Shown in pieces: positions 17,650 to 51,264 of a DNA stretch of 51,264 bases (positions are counted from its first letter, which is position 1; every line of letters starts with the position of its first letter). Origin of the DNA: Cyanophora paradoxa CCMP329 (lineage: Eukaryota; Plantae; Glaucophyta); contig QPMI01000458.1 of assembly GCA_004431415.1 (NCBI GenBank), positions 1 to 51,264 of the forward strand, read 5' to 3'. The translations under genes and the position numbers were made by a program. The notes under the pieces are model-generated. The model made no database searches. It was not told the origin of the DNA and was given only the letters and a program-made list of their open reading frames with translations.

Positions 17650-17688
<39 letters not shown>

Positions 17689-29732: not shown

Positions 29733-30023
29733 GTTCGCTCAAGGCCGCTGCGCGCCAGACATCGATGTCGACTAGTACTAGTACTGGCCTGACAGGGCGT
29801 ACGTATATAGGTGGGCTCTTGCCAAGGGTCGAGCTCTCGAGCTTGCCCCTTCGCTGTCAATGCATTGTTAACCCTCGGAGGTTGATGAGTCACGCGTTGC
29901 GGAGGTTGCATTGTTATATTGCATTCGGGGAGGCAGGGGGACTAACACGTCCAATGTACCCCCCGGGGGCCTCCCGGCCTCTAACTAGGCTCGGACTCTA
30001 ACTGAATGCTGTACCCCCTGCGG

Positions 30024-30776
30024 TTACTGCCCGAGCCTAGCGAACTTGCGTAACTCGGCCTCGCCCTGTACCCAGTGACTGGTGTCGTCCATCCATTCGC
30101 GTACCTCCCTCTGACGCTTGAGTGACTCACGCTGCTCAGGTGAGGGGGAGGGGGGGCCGTAGAGGAGGGGCCGCGGCGGGGGTACCATGCCAAAGTTTGC
30201 CCACTCGGGGGGTATACCGAATTCACCGTGATCGATTCTCTGAGGCGTGAAGTACTGGCCGTCGCTCAGCGCCAGGTGGTAGAAGGCGTTTCGCAGTCGT
30301 CTGAGGAAGCGGGGCTGCACAGTCTGCGGGTCAAGGCTCTCGAAGCGCCACGGTGCCACAAAGTCAATGATACGCTCCTGCACCCGCGCGGGCAGAGCGA
30401 GGATCTGGCTCTTGCGGTTCGCAAAGGCCATCCACAGTGCTTGTAGGTCCGCCCAATCGCCGTTCAGATCCCTGCGTTCTCGCCTGCCATGATTGCGTGG
30501 ATTGATCGTCATACCCATGAAACGTGCTGCGCCGATGGTGTTTTGATCTGGAAACTCTTGATCGTCGTTAAACTTATCTCGTATCCAGCGCACGAGGTAC
30601 AGCACGCGTTCCATAAAGTTCTCCCCGGGCGATCCGCTCCCCGAATCGGGGCCCATCGCCCATCGCCGCCGGTGCAGATCGGATTGTGCGTCGTCCAAGT
30701 CCACGGTCCGCTGTAGGATCTCACCGATGATGGGGCCGTTGTTGTACAGCACGTCGGACTCGCGTGTCCGCGCCAT
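30024..30776 (-). CDS. Viral hypothetical protein, paralog 1 of a tandem pair
   Basis: ATG (MARTRESD) preceded by ATATTCTC; shares FxxRVxxLxxWIRDKF, LPxxxxxxIxxF and RxWxxDxxxxxxGEA with 30815-31519. Confidence 0.7.
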   Translation of the reverse strand: MARTRESDVLYNNGPIIGEILQRTVDLDDAQSDLHRRRWAMGPDSGSGSPGENFMERVLYLVRWIRDKFNDDQEFPDQNTIGAARFMGMTINPRNHGRRERRDLNGDWADLQALWMAFANRKSQILALPARVQERIIDFVAPWRFESLDPQTVQPRFLRRLRNAFYHLALSDGQYFTPQRIDHGEFGIPPEWANFGMVPPPRPLLYGPPSPSPEQRESLKRQREVREWMDDTSHWVQGEAELRKFARLGQ

Positions 30777-30814
30777 GCTCGCGGCTCGCTGAGAATATCT
30801 ACCCGTACCCCCTA

Positions 30815-31519
30815 TCACGTCCACCTCCACGTCAGGCGATTGTTCTCGAAAACGGGGTACGCCTCCTCCTCTGGGGGTATAGTGCCGACCTTTGCCTCAC
30901 CCGGCAGACGGTTTCGATCGTCCTGCAGCCAGTCGCGCAGTCGCTTGCGCTCGTTGATGGGGGGCCTCGAGTCAAAGGGGGATACGTAGGCGGGGGGCGG
31001 GGGTGGGGCGGGCGGAAGCTCTTGCCAGCTCCGGGGTACGAGCTCGCGTGGAATCTCGAGCTCTGTGTACCGTGAGCCGTCGTACTGTCGGACACCGCCT
31101 TCGCCTGTACGCATGTACCACTGTATCTCATTTCGAAGCCCATTGATCACATCGCCTTCGCGCCCGTCTCTACCTGCGAGTAAGAAGTTCATGATCTTCA
31201 ATCTGGCCTCGTTCGGCAGACGGGCCACGCGGCTTCTAGGCGACATCAGCGCCACGTACAGGGACGTAAGCACACTGCTGAAGTCCCAGTTCCGATCATA
31301 GGATGGGGGGGCGAGCCTCACGGTATCCCGCAGCCCCTGGGCTGCAACAGGGGCTAGCCCCCTCAGCGGAAAGGACGACGTTCCTATCCGATTTCGCATC
31401 CCCTCCTTGAACTTATCTCGTATCCAATGGGCCAGGCCCCTAACGCGAGTCAGGAACTCTTCGGGGCTCGAATCTTCGTCCATCTGCGGGACCGGGCTCG
31501 AATCTTCGTCATCCGACAT
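30815..31519 (-). CDS. Viral hypothetical protein, paralog 2 of a tandem pair
   Basis: ATG (MSDDEDSS) preceded by AATTTCTC; the upstream extension in the ORF track overlaps yqaJ and is unlikely. Confidence 0.7.
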   Translation of the reverse strand: MSDDEDSSPVPQMDEDSSPEEFLTRVRGLAHWIRDKFKEGMRNRIGTSSFPLRGLAPVAAQGLRDTVRLAPPSYDRNWDFSSVLTSLYVALMSPRSRVARLPNEARLKIMNFLLAGRDGREGDVINGLRNEIQWYMRTGEGGVRQYDGSRYTELEIPRELVPRSWQELPPAPPPPPAYVSPFDSRPPINERKRLRDWLQDDRNRLPGEAKVGTIPPEEEAYPVFENNRLTWRWT

Positions 31520-31571
31520 TTGCAATTGCACACAACGAGAAATTCTAAACGCTACTGCGAGGCTACGAGCT

Positions 31572-32207
31572 ATGGACCTACAACAGGGGAGCGCGGCGTG
31601 GCACGCTGCGCGCCGCGAAAAGCTAACCGCCTCGAACTTTGCCGCCGCGTGCGGCATCAACCCGTGGAAATCCAGGGCCCGCCTCTGGGCGGAGCTGAGC
31701 GGGATCGCGGAGGAAAACAACTTTGACAACCCTGCCCTAACCTACGGGCACGACTACGAGCCCCTCGCGGTCTCTATCTACAAGGCACTGAACGATAACG
31801 TGGACATTCAACACACTGGACTGCACGAACACAAAGAAATGCCGTTCCTCGCCGGGAGCCCCGACGGACTGATAGGAAATGATAGGATTTTAGAGGTGAA
31901 ATGCCCTTACAAGGGCGAACTTTACGATAGCGTTCCTACCTATTACATGACTCAACTTCAGGGCCTGCTGGACATAACGGGCCGCGACTGGGCCGAACTT
32001 TTCTGTTTCACGCCTCTGCGCGTGCAAACGTGGTACGTCAGACGGGACGAGAGGTACATCGAGCTCATGCGGCGGTGCTTACATCTATTTTGGATGCACG
32101 TGAAGGCTGGAACTCCGCCCGAGCCCTACAGCGATCGAATGAAGTCAGAGAACCTCAGCGAGGAGCAGGCGGCGCTGCGCGAGTTTAAGTCGTACGCCCT
32201 CCTCTAG
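31572..32207 (+). CDS. yqaJ: YqaJ-like viral recombinase / lambda-exonuclease-family (PD-(D/E)XK) nuclease
   Basis: QQGSAAWHAARREKLTASNF, YGHDYEPLA, FLAGSPDGLI, ILEVKCPY, YYMTQLQGLLDIT: complete YqaJ motif set, 211 aa, uninterrupted. Confidence 0.93.
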   Translation: MDLQQGSAAWHAARREKLTASNFAAACGINPWKSRARLWAELSGIAEENNFDNPALTYGHDYEPLAVSIYKALNDNVDIQHTGLHEHKEMPFLAGSPDGLIGNDRILEVKCPYKGELYDSVPTYYMTQLQGLLDITGRDWAELFCFTPLRVQTWYVRRDERYIELMRRCLHLFWMHVKAGTPPEPYSDRMKSENLSEEQAALREFKSYALL

Positions 32208-32546
32208 TGTCCCGACCCTCTCAGATATTAATTTAAAGATCTGGGAGGGTCGGGACACGTCTCTTGGTCAGACTACTTATGTACGCCCTCCTCTAGTGTC
32301 TCGACCCTCTCAGATATTAATTTAAAGATCTGGGAGGGTCGGGACACGTCTCTTGGTCAGACTACTTATGTACGCCCTCCTCTAGTGTCTCGACCCTCTC
32401 AGATATTAATTTAAAGATCTGGGAGGGTCGGGACACGTCTCTTGGTCAGACTACTTATGTACGCCCTCCCTCCTCTAGTGTCCGGACCTTTCCAATAATC
32501 TATAAAGAAAGTAGGGAGGGTCCGGACACGTCTCTTGGTCGGACTC
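32192..32546. repeat. Tandem 89-bp repeats (three near-identical + one diverged), each holding a ~20-bp-arm palindrome with an AT-rich centre
   Basis: Units start at 32192, 32281, 32370 and 32459; core gtgtcccgaccctctcagat-attaatttaaag-atctgggagggtcgggacac. Confidence 0.95.
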
Positions 32547-32824
32547 ACCGTAGCTTGGTGTAGCTCAGGCCCAGGCGGGGAAGGCGAGTCTGCAATGAAT
32601 CAGACCCCACAGGATTTGGTTGAGCTGCTCTTTGCAGGGGGGCAGGAAGGCGGCCGCAGAGGGCTAGGGAGACTAGATCTAATTAGTAATCCCACACCGC
32701 GCATGTGCAAGCGACAGAGAACGAAGTGAGTAAATGCAGATCGATGATACGGCAATCATGAGTTGTTCAGAAAAGGTCGGGACACATAGAGAGTGCATGC
32801 CCTCACTCTCGTCCGCCCTCGCAA

Positions 32825-32875
32825 TGTCCCGACCCTCCCAGATCTTTAAATTAATATCTCAAAAGGTCGAGACAT
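32825..32875 (-). repeat. Dispersed inverted copy of the 89-bp-repeat palindrome core
   Basis: tgtcccgaccctcccagatctttaaattaatatctcaaaaggtcgagaca. Confidence 0.85.
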
Positions 32876-32975
32876 TCATTGATCATATGCATGACGTCAC
32901 TTGAATTCGCACGTTCGTATTTACACACTGGCACGCGCATCCCGTTCGCGAAGTCCACACTGTGACATCCGACAA

Positions 32976-35900
32976 TCACACGCGCCTGTGAATGAGAGCA
33001 TAGCAGTCGGAGAAAACGTTGTAAACCTCTGGGAAGCTTGGCGCCATGCCTGCCCTTGCCTGCTTAGCCTGGCGCTCTACTGCGTCGTCGAGCATGTCTT
33101 CCTCCCACGTGATGTAGCGTCGCTTTCGGCTGCCCATTTGCCCTCCGTCCGCGTCGGAGAAAGCGCGTCTCACTCCGAGGTACTTCTCCAGCAGGTACTT
33201 GATGACTTGCCAAGACTGCTGCGAGAGCCGCTTCTTCTCACCGTCCGCTGCATCGAAGCGGGGCGCGCGCTCGTCCAGACTCTGCAGAGCCGCGTACGCC
33301 TCCCGACCCTCCGGCGACGCCAGGGCCGCGTAGGCTTCGTCCGACCACAGAGCACGCCCCGCGAGCTTTCCATACCCCCGCCAGCCGAAGAGTTTCTTGA
33401 ACAGCGCGACGACCTTCGATACCTTGAGGCGCTCAGCAGTAGGCACGATCTCGGCAACGTCCGCGCCATGCTTCAGCACCAGCGTGACCACGGCAGTGAG
33501 CGGGATGGAGTAGAACGAATCCCACATCCAGGCGACGTCTCCTTCGGTCAGCTCGCTCGGATCCTTGGCCAGGAACGCGGCGATCGACGTGCGAGCAAGC
33601 GAAGCAACCTTCTCGATGTCCAGCTTAGCGAGAGACTCGCGGGACTGCCTCCAGGCCAGCACCGTGCTCCACAGATCGACGGGCTCCAGCGCGCCCGCCT
33701 CCAGCACGCTCCTGATCTCGCGCAGCCGCTGCTCCTTCTCCTGCTTCGGTCCGCTCGGGTTTTGATCCTCCGTGACTTGCACGTTCATCAGCGCGCAGGT
33801 CGACATCAGCCGCAGGCGCGCTGCCACTGCGAGGCGCCGAGTGGGCATGCCGGCGCGGCGGCTCCCGCGGTGGCTAGCCTTCAGGTCCAGGTAGCGCTGC
33901 ATGTCGTCCGAGCTCTCGTCGTCGTCGCTCTCACGCCAGTGCGCAGCCGCCGCGCCGACCGCAACCGAGGGCGTCCGGTTCTTGCGCACGGCGACGAGCA
34001 GGTGCTCTCCGTCGGGCGTGCTGCGTTTGCGCAGCCTTCTGACTCGAAACAGCAGCTGCACGATGTCGTCCGCCTCCAGCTGCGCGGGCTCTGCCTGGAA
34101 CACGCCGTAGACCTTGTCAAAGTGCGCGTCCGAAAAGTCCACGCCTGCCCCGAGCGCGGAAGTTGCGATGAGCACGTCGCAGGCCTTGTACGCGCCCTCC
34201 TCAGACACATCGATCGACACGATGCGCACTGGGCCGTCGTTCGTGAAGCGCACGCTCTTCTCCTTGGCCTGCCCAACGATGAGCCCGATCGTGAACGGTG
34301 CGCCGCTGCCGTCCTCGGGCCCTGCCTCGAGCTGAGTCACGTACTGAGCGCCGCCCAGGCTGAGCTGCTCCAGCGCCTGCTTCGCAATCTTCTCCTGCAT
34401 CTCGATCGCCTTGGCCGGCGTCTCTGCAATGATCATCGCCCGGCAGCGCCCCGGTCTGCACAGCGCCATGATGTCCGCCTCGACGTGCGCCGGGCTGTCT
34501 GACACGCGCATCTTCCAGTCGCAGGTGCGATGCGAGTTGTACAGGAGCCCCAGGCGCGCCCCGACCTCCTGCGCCGACTCTGCCAGGTACGCGAGATCGA
34601 CCGACCGAACGAAGCCGTCCATCGCCACGATGCGCGATGCCTTCATCACGCCGCGCCATAGGCCCACGCAGCGCGCGTTTCGAGGCACTGACCGCATACC
34701 TAGGTGCAGGCCGGTGGGCTCGAGGGTGCCGCTCGAGGTGAGGTGCTTCGTGAGGGAGGAGAGCTCGTCCAGCACGACCAGTAGCGGCGCCGTCGACCAG
34801 CCCTCCCAGTCCTCGAGCACCTTGTGCAGCGAGTCCCATGTGATGACGACGCACCTGCACTCCTCATGGCGGAAGCCCCACTTGCCATGCGATCCCTTTG
34901 AGCTCTCCGGTGGCTTCTTGATGTCCATGTAAAGCACGGCGTCCTTTGACAACTCCGCAGCATCAATGCGACGCTTGAGGTCGCGGGAGAAGGCCCGGCG
35001 GCAAGTCACGAGGATCACTCGCCAGCCGCCTGCAAGGGCCGGGTCCAGGTACGCATCGATCAGCGCCTGCGTCTTCCCCGTGTTGAGTCCCGAGCAGATG
35101 ACGTCGACCTGCGGCTGAGCGGATCTCGGGTTCTGCTCCAGCGCCCCGAATGCGGAGGTAAGGATCTTGCACGAGAGGTGGCGTTCATCCACTGCATTGA
35201 CGCAAGCCTCCAGGCCCGTCGACTCGAGCGCGATCAGGAGGGAGGGGAGGGCAATGTCGAAGGCGACAGGCTGCGAGGGATCGGTCACATAGCGGGTCTG
35301 TGCCACGCTGCCCGACTCCCCTCCGGTCCCCTCCCCCTCGAGCTCGACTTCAATACCGTGCGCCTGGATGGAGATTCGAGCCGCCGGCGCCCCCGGCTGA
35401 CTCCCGCCCAGGACGAGGGTGATGGACCCGTCGGGCTCGACTCCAAGGTGCTGAACGCGGCGGGCGTCGTGCAGGCCAAGGTCCGCGCGCAGCTCTGCCC
35501 CGCCTTCCAGATCTCGTCCCTCACCGCCTTGTTCTTGCGTAGGCGGTCCAGGAGCCGCTCCAAGGCCGGCAGGCTTGGGCTCGAATCCAGGAGAGCGCCC
35601 GGCTCCGGGATGGGCTTAGCGCGGGGCGCCGAGCTTCTGGATGGAGTGGGGAGGAGCTCCGCTCGCGGCCCGGGCGCCGGCCCCCGCAGAACGTAGCCCC
35701 CGGTGCCATCCACACCGAGCTCCAGGCCGCTCGAGCTCCCAAAGAACCATGCCATGAGATCGCAAGCCTCCGGGCTCTGTAGGACGTAGGCAGCCTTGAA
35801 TCCATTATCCAAGGGGCGAGAGAAAGTGAAGCCTCCGAACTTGGTTGCAAAGGCGCAGGCTGCCGCAGTGCTCGTCTCATCCTCGGCACCCGAGAAGTGG

Positions 35901-36097
35901 CTGGGGGTGATGCAGGGCGGGTGGAAGACGCAGAAAGCCGTCCCCAGGGTCGGGCTGCAGGCCTTCTGGACTTCGACGAGAGGGAATCGAACGAAAAAGC
36001 TGCACTCCTGCTCGCTCAGATCTATCTGCTGTACCCCGGGCCCGGGCATACGGGCCAGGAAGGCGTCGACGTCGAGAGACACGCGTCCGGTTGCCAT
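32976..36097 (-). CDS. UL9-like origin-binding SF2 helicase with an uncharacterised N-terminal domain (~1040 aa after correcting one frameshift at 35498-35501)
   Basis: VICSGLNTGKT (Walker A), VILVTCRRAFSRDL, VVITWDSLHKV, VVLDELSS (Walker B), IVAMDG and DVLIATSALGAGVDF follow herpes UL9 motif order (GSGKT, VVSCRRSF, QVESLHRV, LDEV, AMDA). The helicase frame is open upstream of 35306 past 35500, where ORF 35285-36097 joins it with one added base. Confidence 0.8.
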
Positions 36098-36187
36098 GGT
36101 CGTCTCTCTATAGCTAGGCTTGGAAAATTCTAGATCTACTAGGCTAGTCGACGTCTGTTGGCTAGCTATAGTCGACGTCTGGACTGC

Positions 36188-36237
36188 TGTCTCGACCTTC
36201 TGAGATATTAATTTAAAGATCTGGGAGGGTCGGGACA
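36188..36237 (+). repeat. Dispersed copy of the palindrome core upstream of the helicase gene
   Basis: tgtctcgaccttctgagatattaatttaaagatctgggagggtcgggaca. Confidence 0.85.
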
Positions 36238-36842: not shown

Positions 36843-38572
36843 ATGGCGCCCGAGCCGGAGCACTCCGCCGCATCCCGCAGGTGCCAGCTCGCTCTCTTGC
36901 CGCTCTATCCCTTGCATTTAGCACCTAGAACATGTCCCGCAACCTCGCGCTCGATTCGCCCGCGTCCGCTGACATTTGGTCTCTGAGCAGGTGCCGAGAT
37001 TGGCCGCCGCGCCTTCCGCAACTCGAGCCGACGTTCGCGGCGACTTGCGCACGCTTCTAGATCTCGTTCTCAAGCCCGCGCATCGATTCGGCGGCTCCGG
37101 CTCGCCTCCCCGCGCCTCCAGCCCCGCGCCCCACACCCGTTCTTGTCCTAGCTAAGCCCTCCCTTGTCCGCAGCCAGTCGCGGGCTACGCGCATCGCGGA
37201 TAGCATCAGTGGAGCTACGTTTCAGCGCTGGACGCAGGCCCGCCCGCCCAATCCCTCCCACCTCCCGCTCGCAGCACGCTCACTGGGCCGCAGGCAGCTT
37301 CGCGGGGAGCCGCTGGATTCGAAGCCGCGCACCTTCCCCGCCCGTCCCGACGTCGTACGCGCTAACGTCGCCCGCGCCGCAGGTGGCCGCCAGGCCTCCT
37401 GCATCCAGTCCTTCGAGCCGGTGTGGCTGCGGGCGAAGCGCCTCGCCTTCTGGCAGGAGACGGCCTCCTGCACCCTCACCCGCTTCGTCATCACCCACTG
37501 CGTCGTCGACCCCACCACCTACCTCGTCGGCTCGGAGACGGAGGGCGGCATGACGAGCGTGGCGGGCATCTGCGAGTACATCTCGCGCACGGAGGGCCCG
37601 GACGCCGCCGCCGCCGTCGCCGCCGACGTCGAGAACGGCGAGCTGGACGAGACCATCGCCGCCTTCGGCCCAGGTGCCGCCTCTTCTCCTACAGGGCCGG
37701 CGGCATCTGGCAGACCTACATCCGCGGCATCGTCCCCAAGGCCCCCTCTCCCTCGGCGAGAGCCAGCCGGCGCTGCAGGCCATCCAGTTCTTCGAGCCGG
37801 CGGACCCGGAGAACGGCCCTTCCCGTCAAGGCCTCGATCCGCGGCAGGGGCAAGCGCACCCGCAACTCGGCCCCGCCTTCGTCCCGCCCCCGCCCTCCTC
37901 GCACGGCCAGCAGCACCCGCCAGCAGCACCCGGCCAGCAGCGCATCGACGAGATGCTGCCGCGCCAGGTCCGGCCCCGCGTACCCCCCGCCTTCCCTGTA
38001 CCCCCCCTCCCCTCGCCCCCCTCCTGATCCAAGGGCAGGGTACCCCGGCGAACGGCGGCGCGGGCCCGAGCGGCTACGGGAGCTCGGCCCCTCCGACGCG
38101 CGCCCAGCCGTCCCTTCCCCGCCGACGCAGCCGTCCGCCGCTCGCCGCGCTCCGACCGACGCGTTCATCCGCCGGCGCCATCCTCAGCGCGATCATGGGC
38201 TTCGGGGCCCAGCAGGGGGCCGAGCGGCGGGCGCTGGCGGCGCGCCAGGCGCGCGAGGCGGAGGCGCGGCGCCAGGGCCTCTGGGCCCAGCGCCTGCAGG
38301 AGGCCACCGCCTTCCGCGCCGAGCTGGAGGCGGGCTTCCGCGCGGAGCGGATGAGCGCGGCGGAGGCCGTGGAGAGCTGGCGGGCGTTCGAGGACGGGAC
38401 CGTGGAGCTGGCGAAGGGCCTCGGCTACAGCTACCGGCGGGCGCCGGTGCCCACCTCGTACGCAAGGCGGGCGGCGCGCGAGGCCTCGCGGGCAAAGATC
38501 GACGCGGCGGAGGAGCAGGCGGCGCGCGAGGAGGCCGAGGACAACGCGCGCTTCCGGCACCTGCACCACTGA
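36843..38572 (+). CDS. Probable intron-containing gene (or genes) inside the viral element; product unknown
   Basis: Host-style branch/acceptor sites end at 36990, 37173, 37293, 37382 and 38038; coding-like blocks SCIQSFEPVWLRAKRLAFWQETASCTLTRFVITHCVVDP and MGFGAQQGAERR...RFRHLHH-stop. Exon structure uncertain. Confidence 0.35.
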
Positions 38573-38620
38573 GGCCCGAGGCGGTATTTTTTCTCAACCC
38601 TCCCTCAATTCGGTCCCGCG

Positions 38621-38809
38621 ATGGCCTTCGAAGCTTATCCTGCCCACTACTCGCTAGGAGCCCTCGCCGCGACCCTCACCTGGCTCCTCGGCGGCACCCC
38701 CACGGCCTCGGCGGTCATCGGCGTGGGCTTTGGCTACGCCGCCAAGAGCCTCTACGCCCCCGGCTGCGCCTCGCAGGCGGCGGCCGGCATGCGCCCCGCC
38801 GGGCGCTAA
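38621..38809 (+). CDS. Small hydrophobic viral protein (62 aa)
   Basis: ATG preceded by ATTTTTTCTC; two hydrophobic segments. Confidence 0.6.
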   Translation: MAFEAYPAHYSLGALAATLTWLLGGTPTASAVIGVGFGYAAKSLYAPGCASQAAAGMRPAGR

Positions 38810-38903
38810 CTTTTCAAAGTTCATTCTCCCCTCCCCTTTTCCGAGTTCCGAGTCCGTTGGCGTTCCCTTTTAAATTTTCTTCATTCTCGTTACACGTTCG
38901 AAG

Positions 38904-39382
38904 ATGTCGAGCGCGGTAGAGAAGCTGCTGTGCACCGTGTTCAAATCGGATTCGCGATGCAGCAAGATCGGCGAGGCGGCGAGGGCTAAGGGTGGGGCGG
39001 CGGCGGAGGGGCCCAGGGTGAGGGCGGCGGATCCCGCGCCGCCGTCGCTGAAAACGATCAAGGGGGCGGGCAAGGGCAGGAGCGTGGGGCGCTGCCCCTC
39101 GTGGCGATCGCGCCGGGGCAGAGGGAGGCGGCGCACGCGGCGACGGCGGCGCTGGCCGCGCGGCGCCAGGCGGAGGCCTACCCGTGCCTGGGCCGGGGGC
39201 TGCACCCGCCGGCCGGCCGCCCCTACGCCGTGAGCGCCTACTTCGACGAGGCCAACCGGCTGAGCTGCCAGGAGCTGTGCGACAACCGCATGCGGCGCGC
39301 CGTGGACGGGCACCTGCCGCTGCTGGTGGCGCTGGGCGGCTCGCTCCTGATGGTCTGGTACCTGCGCGGCCTGGTCATTTAG
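38904..39382 (+). CDS. Viral protein with a C-terminal transmembrane segment (one frameshift near 39095)
   Basis: ATG preceded by AATTTTCT; ORF 38904 joins ORF 39101-39382, ending LPLLVALGGSLLMVWYLRGLVI. Confidence 0.55.
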
Positions 39383-39419
39383 ATAGTTTTTCGAAACCCC
39401 GGTTGGAAGCTAGCCAAGG

Positions 39420-39746
39420 ATGAGCTGGCTCGATGCGCTGCTCACGAAGACCTTCGGCCCCAAGGGCCAGCCGCGCCTGCAGTTCGGCGAGATCAACGCG
39501 GCGATTGGCGCCACGGTGGAGACGAAGAACCGAGAGAACGTCCTGCGCGGCGACGGAGGCGCGTGGGCCGACATTGCGGCGGGCGCCCTGGGCTCCGCGC
39601 TCACCGCACCGGGCAAGGCGGGCCGCGCGCTGACGGACGGGGCCGAGCGCTTCTGGCACTGGCTCAAGGTGGCCGTTGTCATCGCCGCAGCGGTTGTGGC
39701 GGGTCTCCTGGTGCTCGAGGCTCGCGCGCTATTTTCTAAACGCTAG
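39420..39746 (+). CDS. Viral protein with a C-terminal transmembrane helix (108 aa)
   Basis: WLKVAVVIAAAVVAGLLVLEA; upstream GTTTTTCG motif variant. Confidence 0.65.
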   Translation: MSWLDALLTKTFGPKGQPRLQFGEINAAIGATVETKNRENVLRGDGGAWADIAAGALGSALTAPGKAGRALTDGAERFWHWLKVAVVIAAAVVAGLLVLEARALFSKR

Positions 39747-39762
39747 GTAAACCGAGCGAACC

Positions 39763-40137
39763 ATGCGCGGCGGCTCTTCCCCCCGTGTTTCCTTCGCTGA
39801 GAACCCGGTGGCGAACGCAGTCGCCCCTACCCCCCTGGAGCCCGGAGTGAAGCTGGAGCGTGCGAACGCAGTCTCCGTCAAGAAGGCCAAGCGCACGCTG
39901 GCGCTGGAAGTCCCGGTCGCGGAGGATACGGAGAAGGTTGCATTCAACAAGCGCAAGACGTACAAGGCGATACGCGAGGGACAGCTGCTGCCCACGGACT
40001 CGGTTCCCGGGCTGCCGGGCACCACGGCCGGCGAGCTCCTAGTGCGCAACCTGCGCCTGCAGTACGTCTCCCGCCTCCGCCGCTCCAAGGCCAAGAAGGC
40101 GCGCCTGGACTCGGGCGATAGCAGCTCTAGCTCGTAG
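39763..40137 (+). CDS. Basic viral hypothetical protein (124 aa)
   Basis: ATG preceded by ATTTTCTA; K/R-rich; abuts its neighbours. Confidence 0.65.
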   Translation: MRGGSSPRVSFAENPVANAVAPTPLEPGVKLERANAVSVKKAKRTLALEVPVAEDTEKVAFNKRKTYKAIREGQLLPTDSVPGLPGTTAGELLVRNLRLQYVSRLRRSKAKKARLDSGDSSSSS

Positions 40138-40164
40138 GGCTCTGTACTGTTGTATTCAATGCCT

Positions 40165-40448
40165 TTACCAGTTCCTGTTCCTATCCCAGAGCACGACTCG
40201 GGTGAAGGGCACGGTCATAGCGAACATGAACTCGGCGAACTTGGCAAAGTTCATCAGGGTTCCCAGGCGGGGATCCTCCAGTAGATCGCCTCGCGCAGCG
40301 CCTCGTAGACGCGCATGAGGGAGCGCTCGTTCTCCGTCGCGAAGGCGTCGCCGGGCTCGTCGGGGTCGGGATCCGTGAGCTCGGAGTACTCGTCCGAGCT
40401 GCCCGCGCTCTCGGCACCTGCGGCGGGGTCGGGCGAGGGGTCGGGCAT
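40165..40448 (-). CDS. Viral hypothetical protein (one frameshift at the G-run 40268-40271)
   Basis: MPDPSPDP...AIYWRIP continues as RLGTLMNFAKFAEFMF...NRNW with one added base; upstream ATTTTCTG. Confidence 0.5.
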
Positions 40449-40496
40449 TCTTTGCTGGTAGAAGGGCTAGAAGAGGGACCAGAAAATCACTAGCAA

Positions 40497-40838
40497 TCAC
40501 GGGCGCCGGAACTCCATCGAGTCGCCGCGCCAGTACTTGTTGCCGGAGGCGAGCAGCTTCATCGGCTCGCCCGTCGAATCGTGCTTCCAGGCCTCGCCGT
40601 CCCAGAGGGCCGTGCCGCCGTCCTCTAGCTTGAGGCGGTGGCCCGGCTCGAGACGGTTGCCGTCGAGCATGCGGCCGGCCATGAGCGCCAGGTCCCACTC
40701 GGTGAGGTTGCGCTGCTCTGCGGGGGTGAGGCCGCGCTCGACGCGCTCGGGCTGGCGCGCCTCGCGCTCCATGCGGCTGAGGCCCACCAGGAAGAAGATG
40801 GGCAGGGCAAAGGCCATGAGATCTAGCAGGGCCTCCAT
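40497..40838 (-). CDS. Viral protein with an N-terminal transmembrane/signal segment
   Basis: MEALLDLMAFALPIFFLVGL...; upstream CTTTTCTA. Confidence 0.65.
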   Translation of the reverse strand: MEALLDLMAFALPIFFLVGLSRMEREARQPERVERGLTPAEQRNLTEWDLALMAGRMLDGNRLEPGHRLKLEDGGTALWDGEAWKHDSTGEPMKLLASGNKYWRGDSMEFRRP

Positions 40839-40848
40839 TGGGCAAGAC

Positions 40849-41136
40849 TTAGAAAAGGTTCCGGACCAGGCCCGAGAGCTGCGGGCCCAGGCGCCGGGCG
40901 GCGTAGTAGAGCGCGGCCGCCGCCGCCGCAAGGATCAGCAGGCGCGGCGGGCCGCGCGCCGGCTCCTCCAGCGTCAGGTCCACGGTCTCCGGCCCGCGCG
41001 CCGGAGCCGCCAGGATCTCGGGCTCGGAGCAGAGGGACTTGGGCCCACGGCGGCGGCGCTGCTTGGGCGCCGAGGCGGCGGCGGTGAGAAGGTCCTCAGG
41101 CTCCTGCTTGATACCTGCGCAGTCAGTAAAGTCCAT
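40849..41136 (-). CDS. Small viral protein with a C-terminal hydrophobic segment
   Basis: MDFTDCAGIKQEPED...LLILAAAAAALYYA; upstream AATTTTCC. Confidence 0.6.
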   Translation of the reverse strand: MDFTDCAGIKQEPEDLLTAAASAPKQRRRRGPKSLCSEPEILAAPARGPETVDLTLEEPARGPPRLLILAAAAAALYYAARRLGPQLSGLVRNLF

Positions 41137-41194
41137 GCTTGCTGGGTACCTTGGAAAATTGTGGGAGGCGTCCGGAGATTGCGAACGTAGGAGG

Positions 41195-41907
41195 GGGGAG
41201 AAATGACGCGGACGCAAAAGATTCCGTCATGGGTTTTCCGTCATGGGCTGGAACTTGGACTCGGGACTCGGCCGGGAATTCTCCTGGTAAGTTCGAGACT
41301 TGAACTCGGCGGGGTACCCCCTATGTCCAAATGCCCTAGTGTCCCAGAGTCCTAGTGTCCTAGTGTCCTAGTAGTACTAAGTAGTACTAAGTAGGTGGTA
41401 TCGATATCTAGCTAGCTAGCGCTAGCGCTTGCTTAATTAATTACCTGAAAGGTTGCGGAGGTTGCGGACGCGTCACAATTCCGTCATGGGTTTTCCGTCA
41501 TGGGCTGGAACTTGGACTCGGGACTCGGCCGGGAATTCTCCTGGTAAGTTCGAGACTTGAACAAGAACGACGTACCCCTCCTATGACCGTTCTATACTAC
41601 ATTAAAGTATTCATTGATTGTGAATAACGATAATGTCATAGCAACTTCAGTATGATGTCATAGCAACTTGAAATTACCTTCAAGTCGAATAGAGGGGTAC
41701 AGAGTCGGTACGTTAGACTTGACAAAAACACGTGTATTTTTTTACGCCGAGTTTTGCGGCCGAGTCCCGAGTCCAAGTTCCAGCCCATGACGGAAAACCC
41801 ATGACGGAATTGTGACGCGTCCGCAACCTCCGCAACCTTTCAGGTAAATGTCAGGTAACTTCAGGTTAATTAATTAAGCAAGCGCTAGCAAGCACTAGCT
41901 AGATATC
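41195..41907. repeat. Non-coding origin/terminus-like region: one direct repeat plus a perfect 91-bp inverted repeat (41441-41531 / 41757-41847) around an AT-rich spacer
   Basis: Module attccgtcatgggttttccgtcatgggctggaacttggactcgggactcggccg at 41221 and 41478 (forward) and 41757-41810 (reverse); the arms extend imperfectly to 41403/41907. Confidence 0.93.
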
Positions 41908-42334
41908 ACAGCTCTACCTTGCCCAAGTTGATGGTATCTAGCAAGGCCTGCTCCTCCAAGTCTGCACCACCACCGCCTCCCAGCGCTAGCGCTAGCTCGA
42001 TACCGCCTCCGGCCTTGATCTCCCTTGGCTCCAGCCACCTGAGAGGCTCAGGCCACCTCCTCCTGGTGAAGCCGGTATCGTTGCTCTTGTCCAGCTTGAG
42101 GTAGCGGTAGGGCGCCGGCGCCGGCCAGTCCGGCCTGTGGCCGCTTGCCTCCTTGGCTATGTCCTTGGGCCTACGCGGTCGCAGGTCCGCCTTGGCCTTC
42201 GCCCTCTGCAGGGGGCCCAGCGCCTTGAACTTCGGTGCCTTGGTCGCCGGCAGGGCCTTGGGCTGGGGCTTCTGGGGCTTCTGCATCTTCACCGCCTTGG
42301 GCTTCGGCATCCTTGGCTGCTTCGATTTCGGCAT
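41906..42334 (-). CDS. Lys/Pro-rich basic viral protein (possible DNA-binding core protein)
   Basis: MPKSKQPRMPKPKAVKMQKPQKPQPK...; has its own upstream CTTTTCTC motif; overlaps the 3' end of 42171-42572. Confidence 0.5.
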   Translation of the reverse strand: MPKSKQPRMPKPKAVKMQKPQKPQPKALPATKAPKFKALGPLQRAKAKADLRPRRPKDIAKEASGHRPDWPAPAPYRYLKLDKSNDTGFTRRRWPEPLRWLEPREIKAGGGIELALALGGGGGADLEEQALLDTINLGKVEL

Positions 42335-42572
42335 ACTTCTTGCTCATAAATGAGAAAAGCGCCTCAAAGTCTGCCTTTATCTCCTCCTTGGACCAGGATG
42401 TCATCTGATCCGGGTCACCTGAGAACGGCGCATCGAACGCCACGTGGAGCGATTTGCAGGCCTGGGCAATCATTGGCTCGGGCCATGCCAGCTCGATCAG
42501 CTGAAGGTAGATGTTGAGGGCCTTGTCGAGCTTGGCGCCCTGGGAGACCAGCTGGGAGATGGCGGGCTCCAT
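42171..42572 (-). CDS. Viral hypothetical protein with an acidic tail
   Basis: ccaccATGg start (MEPAISQLV) preceded by ATTTTCTG. Confidence 0.6.
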   Translation of the reverse strand: MEPAISQLVSQGAKLDKALNIYLQLIELAWPEPMIAQACKSLHVAFDAPFSGDPDQMTSWSKEEIKADFEALFSFMSKKYAEIEAAKDAEAQGGEDAEAPEAPAQGPAGDQGTEVQGAGPPAEGEGQGGPATA

Positions 42573-42638
42573 GGTGGGTAGACTAGCATCAGAAAATGGC
42601 GCCAAGTTCGAATCTATTTTTTTACCGGGAGAGTTTGG

Positions 42639-42720
42639 GCCCGAGTCCCAGGTCCAAGTTCCAGCCCATGACGGAAAAACCCATGACGGAATCTTTCGCG
42701 TCCGCGTCACTTCTCCCCCC
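42639..42720 (-). repeat. Fourth (inverted) copy of the TTCCGTCATGGG module
   Basis: ccgagtcccaggtccaagttccagcccatgacggaaaaacccatgacggaatctttcgcgtccgcgtcacttctcccc is the imperfect reverse complement of 41195-41270. Confidence 0.9.
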
Positions 42721-42834
42721 CCCCCTCCTCAGGTGAGCGCTCACCTGAACCTCACCTGAACGGCCTCTATAAGCACGCGGCACGCGGCGTTCCCCTCACA
42801 CTCTCAATCTCTCTCAACGCAACCAGCAAGCAAC

Positions 42835-43416: not shown

Positions 43417-43707
43417 ATGTGCGCCCCCAAGTACTTCACCTGCTGCCTGACCTTCGGCATCTTCGAGTACGAGGCCATGGAAGAGGATCTGGACGAGAAC
43501 GGCGAGATCTGCTTCAACTACTGCAGGCTGCTGCGCAACATCTCGCTGGAGTGCCGCAAGGGCGACTGCTTCCAGCACATCATGCTCAATCCCGCCAAGA
43601 ACGAGATCACCCTGTACGCCGTCGCCTGCCCCAGCGCCAGATTTAGACTCTCGAATATTCGCGTAGCCGCGATCGAAGCCCTTCCCCTCCCCAGTGAGAC
43701 GAATTGA
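43417..43707 (+). CDS. Small Cys-rich viral protein (96 aa)
   Basis: Clean ORF with the same upstream architecture as the preceding gene. Confidence 0.65.
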   Translation: MCAPKYFTCCLTFGIFEYEAMEEDLDENGEICFNYCRLLRNISLECRKGDCFQHIMLNPAKNEITLYAVACPSARFRLSNIRVAAIEALPLPSETN

Positions 43708-43811: not shown

Positions 43812-44591
43812 ATGGCCACCGTCCGCAACGCCAACGAGATCGACCCCGCCAAGCTCGCCTTCGAGATCGACGCCACCGGCCGCATCAAGGCCAAGTACGA
43901 CGGCCTGCAGGGCCTCATGATGTACGCGCCGCCCATGGTCACCATCAACCCCTGCATCAACACAGAGCAAGGCAAGGCGTGGAGCGACGAGAAGAAGGCC
44001 TTCGTCATGGAAGAAAACGGCGGATTCTACACGCTGGACCTCACCGATCTCAGCGCCGTCGACGGCCAGACGAACCCCGCCGCGGACGAGTTCCTCAAGC
44101 TGCTCGAGGCCCTGGACGCGAAATTCTGCGAGTTCGTGCAGCAGAACCAGGCCAAGCTCAAGGTCTCGCCCGGCCGCTCCCTCTCCAAGGACCAGATCTC
44201 GGTGCTGCAGACCCCAGCGTGCGCATCAAGGTCGACAAGGAGTCGGGCCAGGCCTTCTACAAGTACCTCAACATGCGCATCCGCACCCAGACGATGGCGG
44301 GCAAGCGCAAGACCATCCCCGTCGTCGACATGTCCAACTACCTCATCACCGAGCGCGCCACCATCGGCACCGGCGACCTGGTGGCCGCCCTCGTCAAAAT
44401 CGACACCGCCTACGCCATCCCCGAGGGCAAGTTCGGCCTCAAGTGGTCCTTCCTCGCCGTGCAGCAGTGCAAGGTCGGCGCCTTTCGCTTCGCCGGGCGC
44501 GCCCCGAGCTGGCCTTCAAGCCCTACGACAACGAGGCCGATTTCGAGCCCTACCTAAACCCGAGTCTATGTACGCAGCCCCCATGCAGTAG
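43812..44591 (+). CDS. NCLDV-type (T7 gp2.5-like OB-fold) single-stranded DNA-binding protein; frameshifts at the C-runs 44212-44215 and 44502-44505
   Basis: YTLDL...FLKLLEALDAKFCEF...LQTP|SVRIK...GDLVAALVKIDTAYAIPEGKFGLKWSFLAVQ, then an acidic/aromatic tail (YDNEADFEPY); matches the helix-plus-GxFGxxW pattern of nucleocytovirus SSBs. Assignment is by motif recall. Confidence 0.65.
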   Translation: MATVRNANEIDPAKLAFEIDATGRIKAKYDGLQGLMMYAPPMVTINPCINTEQGKAWSDEKKAFVMEENGGFYTLDLTDLSAVDGQTNPAADEFLKLLEALDAKFCEFVQQNQAKLKVSPGRSLSKDQISVLQTPACASRSTRSRARPSTSTSTCASAPRRWRASARPSPSSTCPTTSSPSAPPSAPATWWPPSSKSTPPTPSPRASSASSGPSSPCSSARSAPFASPGAPRAGLQALRQRGRFRALPKPESMYAAPMQ

Positions 44592-44644
44592 CTCGGACGA
44601 ATAAATTGTGAATTTTTGGTGCAATTGATTACAAGCTTTTACAC

Positions 44645-45448: not shown

Positions 45449-45477
45449 CCTTTACGCCTGCCCCTTAGAAATATTTT

Positions 45478-45807
45478 TCACTCCGAGGTCAGCTCGACGA
45501 AGAGCTCGATGTAAAGCCAGAGCTTTTCGCGCAGCTCGGGCCCGCTGCCGTAGAATAGCGAGCGCACGGCCGAGGCGTACTCCTGCGGCAGCCTCTCGAA
45601 AACCGAGTCGTCCTTCGCCTTGATCAATTCCGCCTCCGCGTTGATGTGCCTCCTGAACAGAACGATGACCGCCGTGGCCCCTATGCCGCGCAGCGACTGG
45701 ATCTGCGCCCGCACCCCGGGCTCCTTGGCCTCCGGCTCCAGCAGGTCGAGGAAGCGGCCCCAGCGCGCCTCGATCTGCTCGCCCAGCGTCGCCTCCGTCG
45801 CAGCCAT
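45478..45807 (-). CDS. Viral hypothetical protein (109 aa)
   Basis: Clean ORF ending REKLWLYIELFVELTSE; upstream AATTTCTG. Confidence 0.7.
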   Translation of the reverse strand: MAATEATLGEQIEARWGRFLDLLEPEAKEPGVRAQIQSLRGIGATAVIVLFRRHINAEAELIKAKDDSVFERLPQEYASAVRSLFYGSGPELREKLWLYIELFVELTSE

Positions 45808-45829
45808 GTGCTCGCGTGGGCCTCAGAAA

Positions 45830-46952
45830 TTACTGACCGAGTCGGAGCGCCTGGGCTGCTTGGTCGAACATCTCCGCCTTCCGGGCGTTCGTTTCCGCAA
45901 GCATGGCAATCTGGTTGTTCTCCGTGTTCCGGACGATGGACTGGAAGGCTGTCTGAATTGCAGTCTGCGATGCAGCGGACATACCTGCCACCGTTCCTTT
46001 AGCGCGGAGCTCTAGCATGCGTCCTTTCTGGAACGGCGTGGCAAGTTGATTGCCCTGCAGCGCAGGGAGCGGGTTGACGACGCGGGGCAGCAGGTTCTGG
46101 TCCGCGTAAGGCATGGCCGTCGGCAGGGCCGGGCCGCGCGTCCCGGCTGATCGAGGAGCATCGCCCCAAACGGATTGCCCCGGCTGAAGTCCACGTCGTT
46201 GCGGCCGTAGGGCTTGTTGACGGCGCTGCTGATGTTGGCCGTCTGCGCGTTGAACATGGGCGATAGATCGGGGTGTAGCCCGCGCGCAGCCCCTGGGGGT
46301 TCGCCTCCGTCTGCCCGTAGCGGCCGGCCGGCCCGAGCAGGTTCTCCTTCTCGATCTCTTCCATCGTCTTGATCCAGCCGCGCTCGCGCGCCCACTTCAT
46401 GACGAGATCATCGTAGTTCATCGGGAAGAAAACCTTCTGGTACTTGTCGAAGCGCTGAATTTCGATATCCTGCTCGATCATGTTCGTAATTCGCTCCAGC
46501 AGCTCGGGGTAATATTCCTCGAGCATTTTGGCGACGCCCGGCTGCTTCAGGTCGAAGGCCGTCATCGCCCACTGGTCGAAATCGCGAATCATGATTTCCT
46601 TCCGCAGGCTGAACGCGTTCTCCACGTCCTCCTCGTTGATCGTGCGACCGGGGTTCGCGTTCTGCAGCTGCTGTCGGATGCCCATCCGCATCAGCTTCTC
46701 CATCGAGGGCGTGTACTTCATCGCGGGCAGGGTCTTCGTTTCCCCCCCGCTGAGCCCCAGGCCCCGCGCCTTGTCCTCGGGCGTGTAGACGTCTGCCTTC
46801 GTTCCATCTACGACGGGCACCTCGGGCATGATCGTGCCCGGAAGGAACTTGTTCACGATGCCGTCCATGTCGGCCTTCAGGTCGTTCTTCAGCGCCTGGC
46901 GCTGCTTCTTAGAGCCCTCCCCAATGTCCATCATAGAGTGGCCCTTCGTCAT
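45830..46952 (-). CDS. Viral hypothetical (possibly virion) protein, ~375 aa, split by frameshifts near 46270 and 46130
   Basis: ORFs 45999-46952, 46012-46395 and 45830-46114 join through single-base shifts; only one upstream motif (AATTTCCC). Confidence 0.6.
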
Positions 46953-47030
46953 CGTGCCTCGGTTAGGATCCCAGTGGGAAATTTATTGGTTCACATCGGC
47001 CTACCAAGCACACCCTGGCTAACAAGCAAT

Positions 47031-48399: not shown

Positions 48400-48439
48400 G
48401 GTTTAGGGGTGCGTTGAGAAAATTTTGTGGATGGGCGCC

Positions 48440-50329
48440 TATGCGTCCACAAACCTCCAAAAATCGATGTCGGGTCCGTCCCCGAGAAATAATCTCGTAG
48501 CAGCTGCGCAGGCACGTTGGCAATAATCTGCCCGGGCACGCCCTTGGCCGTGTGGTACCGGAAATCGCAATTTCCGCGAAGCTCCCGAGGGTCTCGTCAT
48601 TGTTTCCGAAGCGCCTCTGTATGTCTTTGAGCGCCTTGCTGTAGGCACCCTGGATCTTCGCGCTCTTTTGATCCTCAAACCACCTGCGCCGCTCCTCCGC
48701 GTCAGGGTTGCCCGCGAGAAACGCCGAAATCTGAGCTGCATCGGGGCCGACGTCCCATCGCTGTTTGCGGGCGGGAGGGGGCACGCTGGGGGGCGCACTG
48801 GGCCCTGCGGCGGGTGCCGGCATCACCTCTCCCGTGGGGCCAATGTCCCACCGGCGCCTGCGTGTGCGCTCGGCCGCCTCCTCGAGTGCCCGTTTACGTA
48901 CCTCAAGCGTCGCCTCTGCCTCCATCACGTCCGCCTGCAGCCGCTCCGTCTGGATGAACTCCGAAACGGTCGCGAGCTCGCTTTCGGGGGCCGCATCGGC
49001 CGCCACGTCGGTGATCAGCTGTCTGCGCGCCTTGGCGAGGAGAGCCGCCCCTTTTGCGTTACGCAGCGCATCCAGCGACCCCAGCCGCGCCTCCCGGGAT
49101 TCGTCCGCGTCTAAGCCCTTCTTCAACTTGCGGTCTTTCGGCTTCGCGGACGATGCGGCGTACGTCGCCGGCGGCGCAGTCGGAACGCCCACGGCAGCCA
49201 GCGCCCCCCTCACCGCGGCCTCTACCGTCGCCATCTCGGCATCGGAAGGACCGGCCGCGGGCGCTCCCACGGATGTGCCCGGGGCGGCCGGAGGGGAAGC
49301 TTCGGGCGATGGAGCGGGGTTGAAGGGCACTAGGAGGGGGCGGCGGCTGTGGTTCGCCGCCACCGCCCCGCCGCCACCGCCCCCGCCGCCACCGCCCCCG
49401 CCGCCACCGCCCCGCCGCCACCGCCACCGCCCCCGTCGCCTTCTGCGGGCCGTTCGCGCCTACCCGGCAGCGCCTTCTGGATCAGCGCCTCCTTGGCGCC
49501 CCTCCGCGCATTCGGCCTCAGAGCGATGGCCCCGTTTTCATCGATGGCCGCGTTGTCCTCTTTCTGATCCGCGCCTCCTGCTCCTTGCTCTCGGCGATCG
49601 TAACGAGCTTGGTCATCGCGGCCGTCAGGCGCCGCATCTCGGCGCGCGTGTCCCTCAGCCGGCCCTCGTCGGGGCCGGGCCCTCGTCGTCCGATCCGGGT
49701 GGCTCGGCCTGGGTGAACGGCTGCGAGGTGTTCCTATCCGCGTAGCTCTTCTTCTCCTCCGGTAGGTTTTCGCGCGCATAAATGCTCGTCGGTTTGAACT
49801 CCTCGCCGTTCACGATGTACTTGTAGTAGTAGTACGCGTCATCCAAGTTCATGGGCCCGAGGGTCTCGAGTCGCTTTTTGCGTTTCAAGAACTCTGTGAT
49901 CTGGTCTTCCTTCGACTTGCAAAAATCGCGCACGCCTGGGAGCATGGTCAAATTCTTACCGTCCACGTCGCACGCGCCCGCGCCCCGCGCCTTTCGGTTC
50001 GTTTGAGTCACGGCGTCGATGGCAAAGGCGGACTGGCCCATCAGCCAGGAGCGGAAGCCCTCCTCGTACTCCTCGTCCAGCCCGGACTCCATCTCCTTGA
50101 ATTTGTTGATGTAGTAGGCGTTGGCGATGGCCTGCGCCTCCACCTCTGCGAGCTTGTCGGTTTTCGCCCTATCCTCGACGCGCATCCCGTCGGAGCGGTG
50201 CAGCGCGGTTTTGGCCATCTGCTGAAAGTGCGCGTACTTGTCGCTCTCAAAGGGCGTGATGTGCGAGTCCCCGCCCCCCGGGACCGCCAGCACGTTGCGC
50301 GGCGCGAAACGCGAGGCGAGCCCCCTCAT
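48440..50329 (-). CDS. Large viral hypothetical protein broken by several frameshifts; globular N-terminus, low-complexity C-terminus; stop position uncertain
   Basis: ORF 49655-50329 (EEGFRSWLMG...LPGVRDF...GPMNLDDAYYYYKYIV) appears to continue through 49330-49779 and the N-terminal part of ORF 46991-49363 (repeat RRWDIGP/QRWDVGP). Confidence 0.5.
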
Positions 50330-50612
50330 TTGCTCTTCTTAGGGGCTGGCTTTGAAATTTTATCGGTCTTGGCCTTGTCTTCCTTCCCGTCCTTCTTATC
50401 GGCCCCTTCTTCCCTGCTTCGTCGGGCGCATCGCCACGAATATTTTCGCCGGGCGAGACGTCCTCGTACAGCGGCTTCGGCCCCTTAGGAAATTCGGGCG
50501 GCCCCTTCAGCTTCTCCTTCGCCTCCTTCACCTCGGCCTTGGTGGGCCGCTCCTGCCCGTTCGTGGGCGCCTTTTTCGCGGCTTCTTTTGTGCCTCCGGC
50601 ATGTTTACCCAT
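50247..50612 (-). CDS. Small Lys-rich viral protein (ends uncertain)
   Basis: MGKHAGGTKEAAKKAP...; upstream ATTTTTCTG. Confidence 0.45.
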   Translation of the reverse strand: MGKHAGGTKEAAKKAPTNGQERPTKAEVKEAKEKLKGPPEFPKGPKPLYEDVSPGENIRGDAPDEAGKKGPIRRTGRKTRPRPIKFQSQPLRRANEGARLAFRAAQRAGGPGGRGLAHHAL

Positions 50613-50700
50613 CACCAGAAAAATATGGGTTGGCACCCCGTACGTCTCGGGGAACTGCCTCTCCCACCTGCGCATGGCCGCGTCCCTCTGGTCGTCGAAG

Positions 50701-50958
50701 CTACGGGTAGGCCGCGGCCCTCTGCCCCATCACGATTTGCCAGAGCCGTGCACGGACCTCGTCCTGCAGTCTGTACACCCAATCGCGAATGTTCTCGACG
50801 ATATCCGTCGGCAGCGTGGCCAACCCCGCCTTGATCTCGGGTACATCCGTGGGATCCTCTTCGAGCGTAAGCTTCTGCATGCGAGCGCGCAGCATCTCAA
50901 TTTGCGTATCGATTGGGGCCAATAAGGGATAGATCGAGACATCGGGGTACGGGGTCAC
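50701..50958 (-). CDS. Small viral hypothetical protein
   Basis: IDTQIEMLRARMQKL...DWVYRLQDEVRARLWQ; upstream AATTTCTC; start uncertain (the ATG at 50942 needs a frameshift). Confidence 0.5.
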   Translation of the reverse strand: MTPYPDVSIYPLLAPIDTQIEMLRARMQKLTLEEDPTDVPEIKAGLATLPTDIVENIRDWVYRLQDEVRARLWQIVMGQRAAAYP

Positions 50959-51007
50959 TGAGAAATTACACTGGGTCGGAAGAGGAGGTACCCCACCAGG
51001 ATCCCCG

Positions 51008-51217
51008 CTATAATCCAGAGGGCGACCAGTCGCGCTCCGCCGGCGCGCCCCCCGGCGTCACCATCAGCTGCCCCGCCCCGGGCCTGCGCAGGCCGTGCGT
51101 GCGGTGGTCCGCCCAGTGCGGGCGCGGGAACTGCTCCTGCGGCATGCGCTCGGGGTAGATGCCGTCGAATCGGTTCTGCATTTGGTACATGTCCCTATCG
51201 AACAGCAGGGAGGCCAT
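51008..51217 (-). CDS. Small viral hypothetical protein (69 aa or longer)
   Basis: ATG preceded by ATTTCTA. Confidence 0.5.
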   Translation of the reverse strand: MASLLFDRDMYQMQNRFDGIYPERMPQEQFPRPHWADHRTHGLRRPGAGQLMVTPGGAPAERDWSPSGL

Positions 51218-51264
51218 TTCTCAATTTGGGGAGGGACTTAGAAATACTGCCCGTGAGCTCCCTG

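Follow-up and report, generated by a model that had tools for sequence, protein, structure and literature searches.

An active provirus family of the glaucophyte alga Cyanophora paradoxa, with many copies and a deeply divergent capsid of giant-virus type

What kind of element interrupts a kinesin-3 gene of the glaucophyte alga Cyanophora paradoxa and fills the DNA beyond it with densely packed genes? The window, i.e., the whole stretch of DNA analysed here, is 51,264 nt long; the element occupies its last ~21.4 kb and runs off its end. A sequence-only reading had proposed a small, mriyavirus-like provirus related to the nucleocytoplasmic large DNA viruses (NCLDVs). Integration, an NCLDV-type capsid and a UL9-type helicase were borne out, whereas the words "small" and "mriyavirus-like" still express what we infer, and copy number, expression and an antisense RNA had been missed. 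The element is one member of a provirus family that is active, exists in many copies and has a deeply divergent capsid of giant-virus type. On balance, we favor the explanation that several dozen integrated, transcribed copies of an element encoding a capsid, a YqaJ nuclease and a UL9-like helicase probably represent a small virus that lacks a polymerase, depends on the nucleus and belongs to an undescribed lineage.

Small viruses related to the giant viruses are key to understanding how giant viruses originated, and almost all of them are known from metagenomes only, without a host. If the favored explanation is right, a cultured model alga harbors a deeply divergent small relative in numerous copies that are intact and expressed, and the genome size, route of integration, virion production and antisense RNA role of this virus are directly testable. 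We know of no virus isolated from the glaucophyte lineage.

Integration, copy number and exchange between copies

The kinesin-3 gene has many short introns, its last visible exon ends at 29,732, and it is joined to the element, in agreement with the earlier claim of contiguity with intron-rich host DNA. Proteins encoded in the window are present in EukProt, and other members of their clusters bear C. paradoxa accessions. At least half of the sampled words from 28.5-38.4 kb were present in 16 of the 24 listed runs. In three DNA runs (X1, X14 and X5, from 2012, 2019 and 2024), a host-depth contig with 0-2 differences from the window spans the kinesin gene and stops at 29,831-29,833, where the depth rises ~20-30-fold or more. 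Considering that the words were 31 bases long, these contig ends place the boundary at ~29,802-29,811 and not at 29,870, where the element had been said to start. Because the junction contigs carry only ~30 bases of element sequence, they confirm the junction words but not long-range continuity. The element is integrated in the genome of C. paradoxa, where it cuts the kinesin-3 gene. No terminal-repeat partner of its left end was found within the window.

The element is present in many copies, at roughly 10-65 times the host depth. On long single contigs, the element-to-host depth ratios, which are rough when taken from contigs, were 8-13 for the left open reading frames (ORFs), 35-58 for the helicase and 21-24 at 42.9 kb; in X1, the gene of the putative single-stranded DNA-binding protein (SSB) reached 66. 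Gene models of the major capsid protein (MCP) fall into three subfamilies on 32 named contigs with conserved neighbours, and 17 of the 32 compared are full length, with 55-100% identity to P0001. Among the matches listed, MCP models lie at a distance of 2-6 models on 18 of the 24 named SSB contigs and on 10 of the 13 named DUF5767 contigs.

Capsids of 55-63% identity adjoin SSB and DUF5767 copies that are 97-99% identical to the common type, and on contig 342 a helicase variant of ~72% identity adjoins a 98%-identical capsid. Such divergent variants on near-identical backbones show that modules have been exchanged between copies of the element. DNA contigs also jump over 30485-30735, 43465-43701, 45809-46224 and 46739-46870, which indicates that other copies have different sequence there.

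Capsid, replication genes and transcription

The NCLDV-type capsid named by the sequence-only reading was supported by a Pfam Capsid_N match of the window MCP (1.1e-7) and by its fold. Capsid_N matches all three MCP subfamilies, one of them under the curated cut-off, and ESM placed the MCP at 0.98 to NCLDV capsid clusters, with recognition below threshold. An MCP profile search against 1.84 billion representatives gave 96 matches, of which seven from Cyanophora scored 117-953 bits and the top outsider 60 bits. A profile dominated by the outsiders finds PBCV-1 capsids at 1e-124, so the outsiders are ordinary giant-virus capsids. The MCP model (69 sequences, pLDDT 79.9) superimposed on PBCV-1 with a Z of 36.9 and an rmsd of 2.3 over 353 aligned residues, followed by faustovirus (35.3), iridovirus (35.1) and EhV (34.3). 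The virophages Sputnik and mavirus reached only 21, against 33-37 for NCLDV capsids, and adenovirus 15. Foldseek searches of BFVD and PDB were consistent with a giant-virus capsid, and adintovirus ranked far down in BFVD; the entry at BFVD rank 3, A0A2H4YBA8, possibly a Pleurochrysis endemic virus capsid, was not used. Because the model was built on an NCLDV-rich alignment, the fold evidence is not independent of the sequence evidence, and a PDB search with the single MCP sequence gave no match.

The profile searches and phylogeny that had been suggested as a check of the capsid returned giant-virus-type matches and no supported sister. A quick tree (LG+G4, 85 rows) was built from four Cyanophora sequences, 68 representatives (365-520 aa), P0016 and 12 of the 45 locus MCPs, a set with neither mriyavirus nor Polinton-like virus (PLV) references; the Cyanophora clade in it had a support of 100 and a stem of 1.5. 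As to a Polinton or PLV origin, the outside MCP sequence matches are giant-virus MCPs, in a comparison whose tree holds no PLV reference, and pPolB, RVE and YR were not found within the window. Judged from sequence and model, the capsid is of Nucleocytoviricota type rather than virophage type, deeply divergent and without a close outside relative.

Two replication genes claimed earlier were confirmed. The identity of the YqaJ nuclease is certain from its family matches (Table 1). The helicase is UL9-like, with matches to Herpes_ori_bp (1.3e-8) and CyRepA1 (3.8e-15) and weak profile-search matches to UL9 structures (E ~1e-3); a single-sequence PDB search gave an E of 0.21. All nine helicase homologs found are from Cyanophora. 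Its N-terminal 300 residues had no family match, and the acidic motif I of archaeo-eukaryotic primases (AEPs) was not seen there by eye. The break at 35,497 may be an assembly error or peculiar to the window copy: three DNA runs fill it with an extra base, in contigs that have 4-5 further differences from the window. The third claim, an NCLDV-type SSB, was not substantiated: the ORF at 43812..44591, a putative SSB by its motif pattern, had no match in Pfam, PDB, PHROGs, the ESM atlas, phage tblastn or 70 giant-virus loci. Its relatives outside the C. paradoxa genome, P0077 (ENA, 90%) and P0083 (Logan, 71%), both on 3-kb contigs, point to related viruses elsewhere.

Downstream of the helicase, a 50-nt palindrome forms a tandem array; one further unit lies on each flank of the gene, the two making up a 98% inverted pair. 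Herpesvirus UL9 is an origin-binding SF2 helicase that acts at oriS and oriL, which contain AT-centred palindromes, and by this analogy the palindromes of the element may serve as origins. The likeness to herpesviruses is confined to the helicase motifs, and the capsids are unrelated. An ATGACG-containing block (41190-41305, 42622-42723) lies upstream of two divergent genes and recurs in each arm of the central inverted repeat; it is a candidate early promoter. A further motif, [AT][AT]T2-4C[TC], precedes 19 of 25 hand-picked starts at a distance of at most 60 nt (background 6%), a count that is optimistic because the motif was derived from the same starts.

The element is transcribed. In four RNA-like runs from four studies, the RNA status of which was taken from spliced joints and a poly(A) tail, MCP contigs of 934-1,379 nt had 0 substitutions relative to the window, so the window copy or an identical sister is expressed. 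These contigs insert a base at 47,263 (all four runs) and at 48,373 (two runs), the two MCP frameshift sites, and the frameshifts of the SSB and the 374-aa ORF are corrected likewise; the breaks in these three genes are therefore assembly errors. In one run, the MCP coding strand carried a poly(A) tail near position 46,970. Element RNAs are spliced on both strands, and such splicing by the host indicates nuclear transcription.

The helicase gene is crossed from palindrome to palindrome by a spliced antisense RNA. Of its 12 GT-AG joints, 11 were found in X18, at least 10 each in X17 and X22 and at least eight each in X19 and X21, together representing five RNA studies, and none in the three DNA runs. 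All lie on the + strand, opposite the helicase; a branch-like motif accompanies 10 of the 12. A coding function was rejected: with 11 introns the longest frame is 363 codons (null p 0.22), and with 12 introns it is 310, below all 1,500 null draws. Herpesviruses express, in association with latency, a spliced non-coding transcript that is antisense to a key viral gene, and our hypothesis is that the antisense RNA of the element represses the helicase. Overlapping bidirectional ORFs are, however, reported to be common in the C. paradoxa genome (PMC6704402), which makes pervasive antisense transcription a reasonable alternative. At 32644-33929, the antisense 5' end, the summed RNA contig depth was ~14,000-15,000 in X19, X21 and X22, contig depth being a poor measure, and an unspliced RNA contig lies inside this stretch at 33,263-33,909.

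Affinities and competing explanations

The genes that define mriyaviruses are MCP, A32, VLTF3, VLTF2, RuvC, HUH and four others, carried in 35-45 kb (PMC11253617), and endogenous mriyaviruses have been reported in algae (bioRxiv 10.64898/2026.06.19.733378). Like Mriyaviricetes (Yaraviridae, Gamadviridae), the element has an NCLDV-like double jelly-roll capsid and a PD-(D/E)XK nuclease, with no PolB or RNA polymerase (RNAP) seen; like a subset of Yaraviridae it has a UL9-related SF2 helicase and, like Gamadviridae, an SSB, which is putative here (PMC11253617). Capsid type, helicase and a nuclease are the features that match. However, SF2 helicase and SSB occur in separate mriyavirus families, the intact primase motif of SF2_hel mriyaviruses was not recognised in its helicase, and the mriyavirus nuclease is not orthologous to YqaJ (PMC11253617), the type encoded here. 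Unlike Mriyaviricetes, the element has no HUH, A32, VLTF2/3 or RuvC in its 21 kb and exists in dozens of copies with swapped capsids. DUF5767 is not named in the PMC11253617 supplements. Membership in Mriyaviricetes is unproven.

The "Ariadnavirales" (SmDNAV and relatives; bioRxiv 10.64898/2026.08.29.747986) likewise have a UL9-like helicase, YqaJ and SSB without PolB or RNAP, and are also nucleus-dependent and associated with protist genomes. They differ in exceeding 200 kb, in having an intact AEP, PCNA, TFIIB and VLTF2/3, none of which was seen in the element, and in their hosts. Zoravirus, VC134, VC218, Zephyrvirus and Alpenseevirus (bioRxiv 10.64898/2026.06.19.733378) resemble the element in being small, with NCLDV-related capsid modules and integration in some cases, but are defined by Mriya48, HUH, RVE or YR genes, which it was not seen to carry; the main text of that preprint mentions neither Cyanophora nor UL9. 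PLV-type endogenous viruses share its host and are multi-copy (366 MCPs in two clusters), and one of their MCPs shares a contig with an MCP of the element's family; six example PLV MCPs, however, look unlike the element MCP by eye, and the latter matches Capsid_N (PMC10120064). Pattern scans of IMG/VR and JGI metagenomes, in which only close relatives are detectable, found no free relative by MCP, DUF5767, SSB or helicase, and one YqaJ locus at 27%. No description of the element was found in the literature searched, which left out most subscription journals; preprint supplements and the full PMC10120064 MCP lists could list these contigs.

The element works like a nucleus-dependent, integrating relative of mriyaviruses and Ariadnavirales, with membership in neither established. 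In the mechanism that we propose, host RNA polymerase II would transcribe the element, and the AT-centred palindromes flanking the helicase gene would be bound and opened by the helicase itself, as oriS and oriL are by UL9. Host DNA polymerase, together with the putative SSB, would copy the DNA, YqaJ and SSB would drive module-swapping recombination, and the antisense RNA would keep the helicase, and hence replication, low in latency. Only tentatively, and as something rather unlikely, do we suggest a separate dwarf nucleocytovirus lineage distinct from mriyaviruses and marked by active glaucophyte proviruses, herpes-like palindromic origins, capsid and helicase swapping and antisense-RNA latency.

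Several observations weigh against a small, polymerase-less virus with this mechanism. The closest detectable MCP homologs are canonical giant-virus capsids, the putative SSB is without a match in any of the resources searched, and a named MCP model is present on only 2 of the 17 named helicase contigs. A32, VLTF2/3, RuvC and HUH were not found in the 21 kb seen, the far end and the size lying beyond the window. The antisense contigs differ from the window copy at 3-4 positions by majority-type variants, so the antisense RNA comes mainly from other copies. Finally, the Ariadnavirales show that the same replication set can occur in a reduced giant virus of more than 200 kb.

The window could instead be one end of an endogenous Megaviricetes virus of more than 100 kb, either reduced like the Ariadnavirales or with PolB and RNAP further on. 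This would agree with the MCP, whose identifiable outside matches are all giant-virus capsids and whose top fold match is PBCV-1, with the SmDNAV gene content and with the continuation of the element past the window. However, dozens of copies would have to reside in a 100-Mb genome, and the MCP was the only gene in the 21 kb matched among 58 giant-virus loci. The left terminus, replication genes and capsid are all contained in 19 kb, and on one contig a PLV capsid gene probably lies at most 14 models past the MCP by gene numbering, a weak hint of a near end. Considering that unknown repeats make up 11.5% of the genome (PMC6704402) and PLVs ~7.3% (PMC10120064), ~4 Mb would be left for ~40 copies, i.e., at most ~100 kb per copy, a crude bound that ignores collapsed repeats. 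We regard this larger virus as possible, with a low probability.

A composite, in which a capsid element is combined with a helicase cassette that moves on its own and has the 50-nt inverted palindromes as its ends, seems less probable still. The 98% inverted repeats bracket the helicase exactly, 15 of the 17 named helicase contigs lack a named MCP, and the helicase variants in this slot span 48-98% identity. Moreover, the fused model P0066 has the 39.4-kb ORF on the helicase strand, suggesting an inversion, and one RNA contig has a different sequence before 33,013. Against such a cassette, the helicase keeps its neighbourhood on no fewer than four other named contigs (342, 471, 20851 and 21428), and the helicase depth is close to that of 36.2-37.4 kb in X1 and X14. 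The helicase search covered models of 462-1,470 aa only, and gene models may be distorted by the antisense splicing.

An element that depends on a helper or forms no virions and that, like PLVs and virophages, spreads within the genome or needs a co-infecting giant virus would fit the lack of a visible packaging ATPase in the 21 kb and of free relatives in the pattern scans. The depth ratios were also alike in the 2012, 2019 and 2024 runs, giving no sign of free amplification. We consider this quite improbable; the capsid ORF is intact in 17 models and transcribed, the putative SSB has relatives outside the C. paradoxa genome, and pattern scans reach only close relatives. A chimeric assembly, joining a co-cultured virus or repeat to host DNA, would suit a long-read assembly with many single-base indels and junction contigs whose ~30 element bases are at the bridging threshold, but this objection is answered by junction words at host depth in three short-read DNA runs from three years, by copies on 32 contigs and by an element-gene GC3 of 0.7-0.98, and we give it almost no weight.

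Other features of the window

The remaining features are listed in Table 1. ORFs are dense from 30,024 to the window end and mostly intronless, as had been described, although at least one viral gene contains a spliced intron. PolB, RNAP, integrase and A32 were found neither among 30 ORF pieces nor in a further scan of 25, in line with the earlier statement that no PolB, integrase or packaging ATPase is visible. No HUH motif was found in a coding frame within the window, and no Rfam match was obtained. The products of the 109-aa and 374-aa ORFs are likely virion proteins, considering their position beside the MCP; the 374-aa and 224-aa ORFs show no pairwise similarity. Reduced splice-acceptor motifs on sense strands were true of some genes and not of others, and were not used.

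Table 1. Coordinates of the annotated features and the observations on which each annotation is based
Feature	Position	Strand	Evidence or remark
Kinesin-3 gene, host flank outside the virus	26530..29732	+	Pfam Kinesin, Kinesin_assoc and FHA on exon frames; host-level depth
Left host-element junction	~29802..29811	.	Host-depth DNA contigs; TATATAG at boundary
250-aa ORF, left arm	30024..30776	-	6-member cluster; other contigs have it near YqaJ or the helicase
234-aa ORF, partly similar to 250-aa ORF	30815..31519	-	44-nt repeat D20, 73%; no family match
YqaJ / lambda-exonuclease-family nuclease, 211 aa	31572..32207	+	PF09588 2.7e-28; phrog_434 9e-40; TIGR03033
Candidate origin: 89-nt units (3.9 in tandem), every unit containing a 50-nt AT-centred palindrome	32192..32545	.	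Hairpin -22.5 kcal/mol
Palindrome unit, 98% inverted partner of 36,188-36,237; 5' bound of antisense RNA	32825..32874	.	
Spliced antisense RNA, 12 GT-AG introns of 49-117 nt	~32871..36232	+	Joints in X17, X18, X19, X21, X22
UL9/CyRepA1-like SF2 helicase, ~1,040 aa, one frameshift near 35,497	32976..36097	-	
Palindrome unit upstream of helicase, tandem in other copies	36188..36237	.	Joint 36,249 to 36,186 in three DNA runs
ORF block	36932..40137	+	No family match
Small ORFs, one spliced intron 40,418-40,490	40184..41136	-	Intron joint in X19, X22
Nested inverted repeats 41,403-41,531 / 41,757-41,907 around 38%-GC core; candidate origin or promoter block	41190..42723	.	
Two cysteine-rich ORFs, 157 and 96 aa	42835..43707	+	5-member cluster; RNA contigs
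Putative NCLDV/T7-type SSB, 260 aa in intact copies (P0074)	43812..44591	+	22-member cluster
DUF5767 protein, 267 aa	44645..45448	-	PF19071 2.7e-13; 22-member cluster
109-aa ORF and 374-aa ORF (intact in P0128)	45478..46952	-	Beside MCP
Double jelly-roll MCP, 456 aa in intact copy P0001	47034..48399	-	Pfam Capsid_N, fold, RNA contigs; two frameshifts here
Further ORFs, many single-base indels, element runs off window	48440..51264	-	

Several observations concern the host part of the window. Host segmental duplications of 73-92% identity, one block of which is inverted, lie at 8289-11124, 12214-12612 and 17153-19669, and a diverged inverted copy of the kinesin 5' exons (26702-26873) is found ~3 kb upstream at 23312-23523. 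A lower-GC stretch at 24106-24813 resembles a miniature inverted-repeat transposable element, with a perfect 32-nt inverted repeat around 644 nt. Host exons at 19794-20273 and 5525-6220 have weak TMEM260-like and TRAFD1 zinc-finger matches, respectively.

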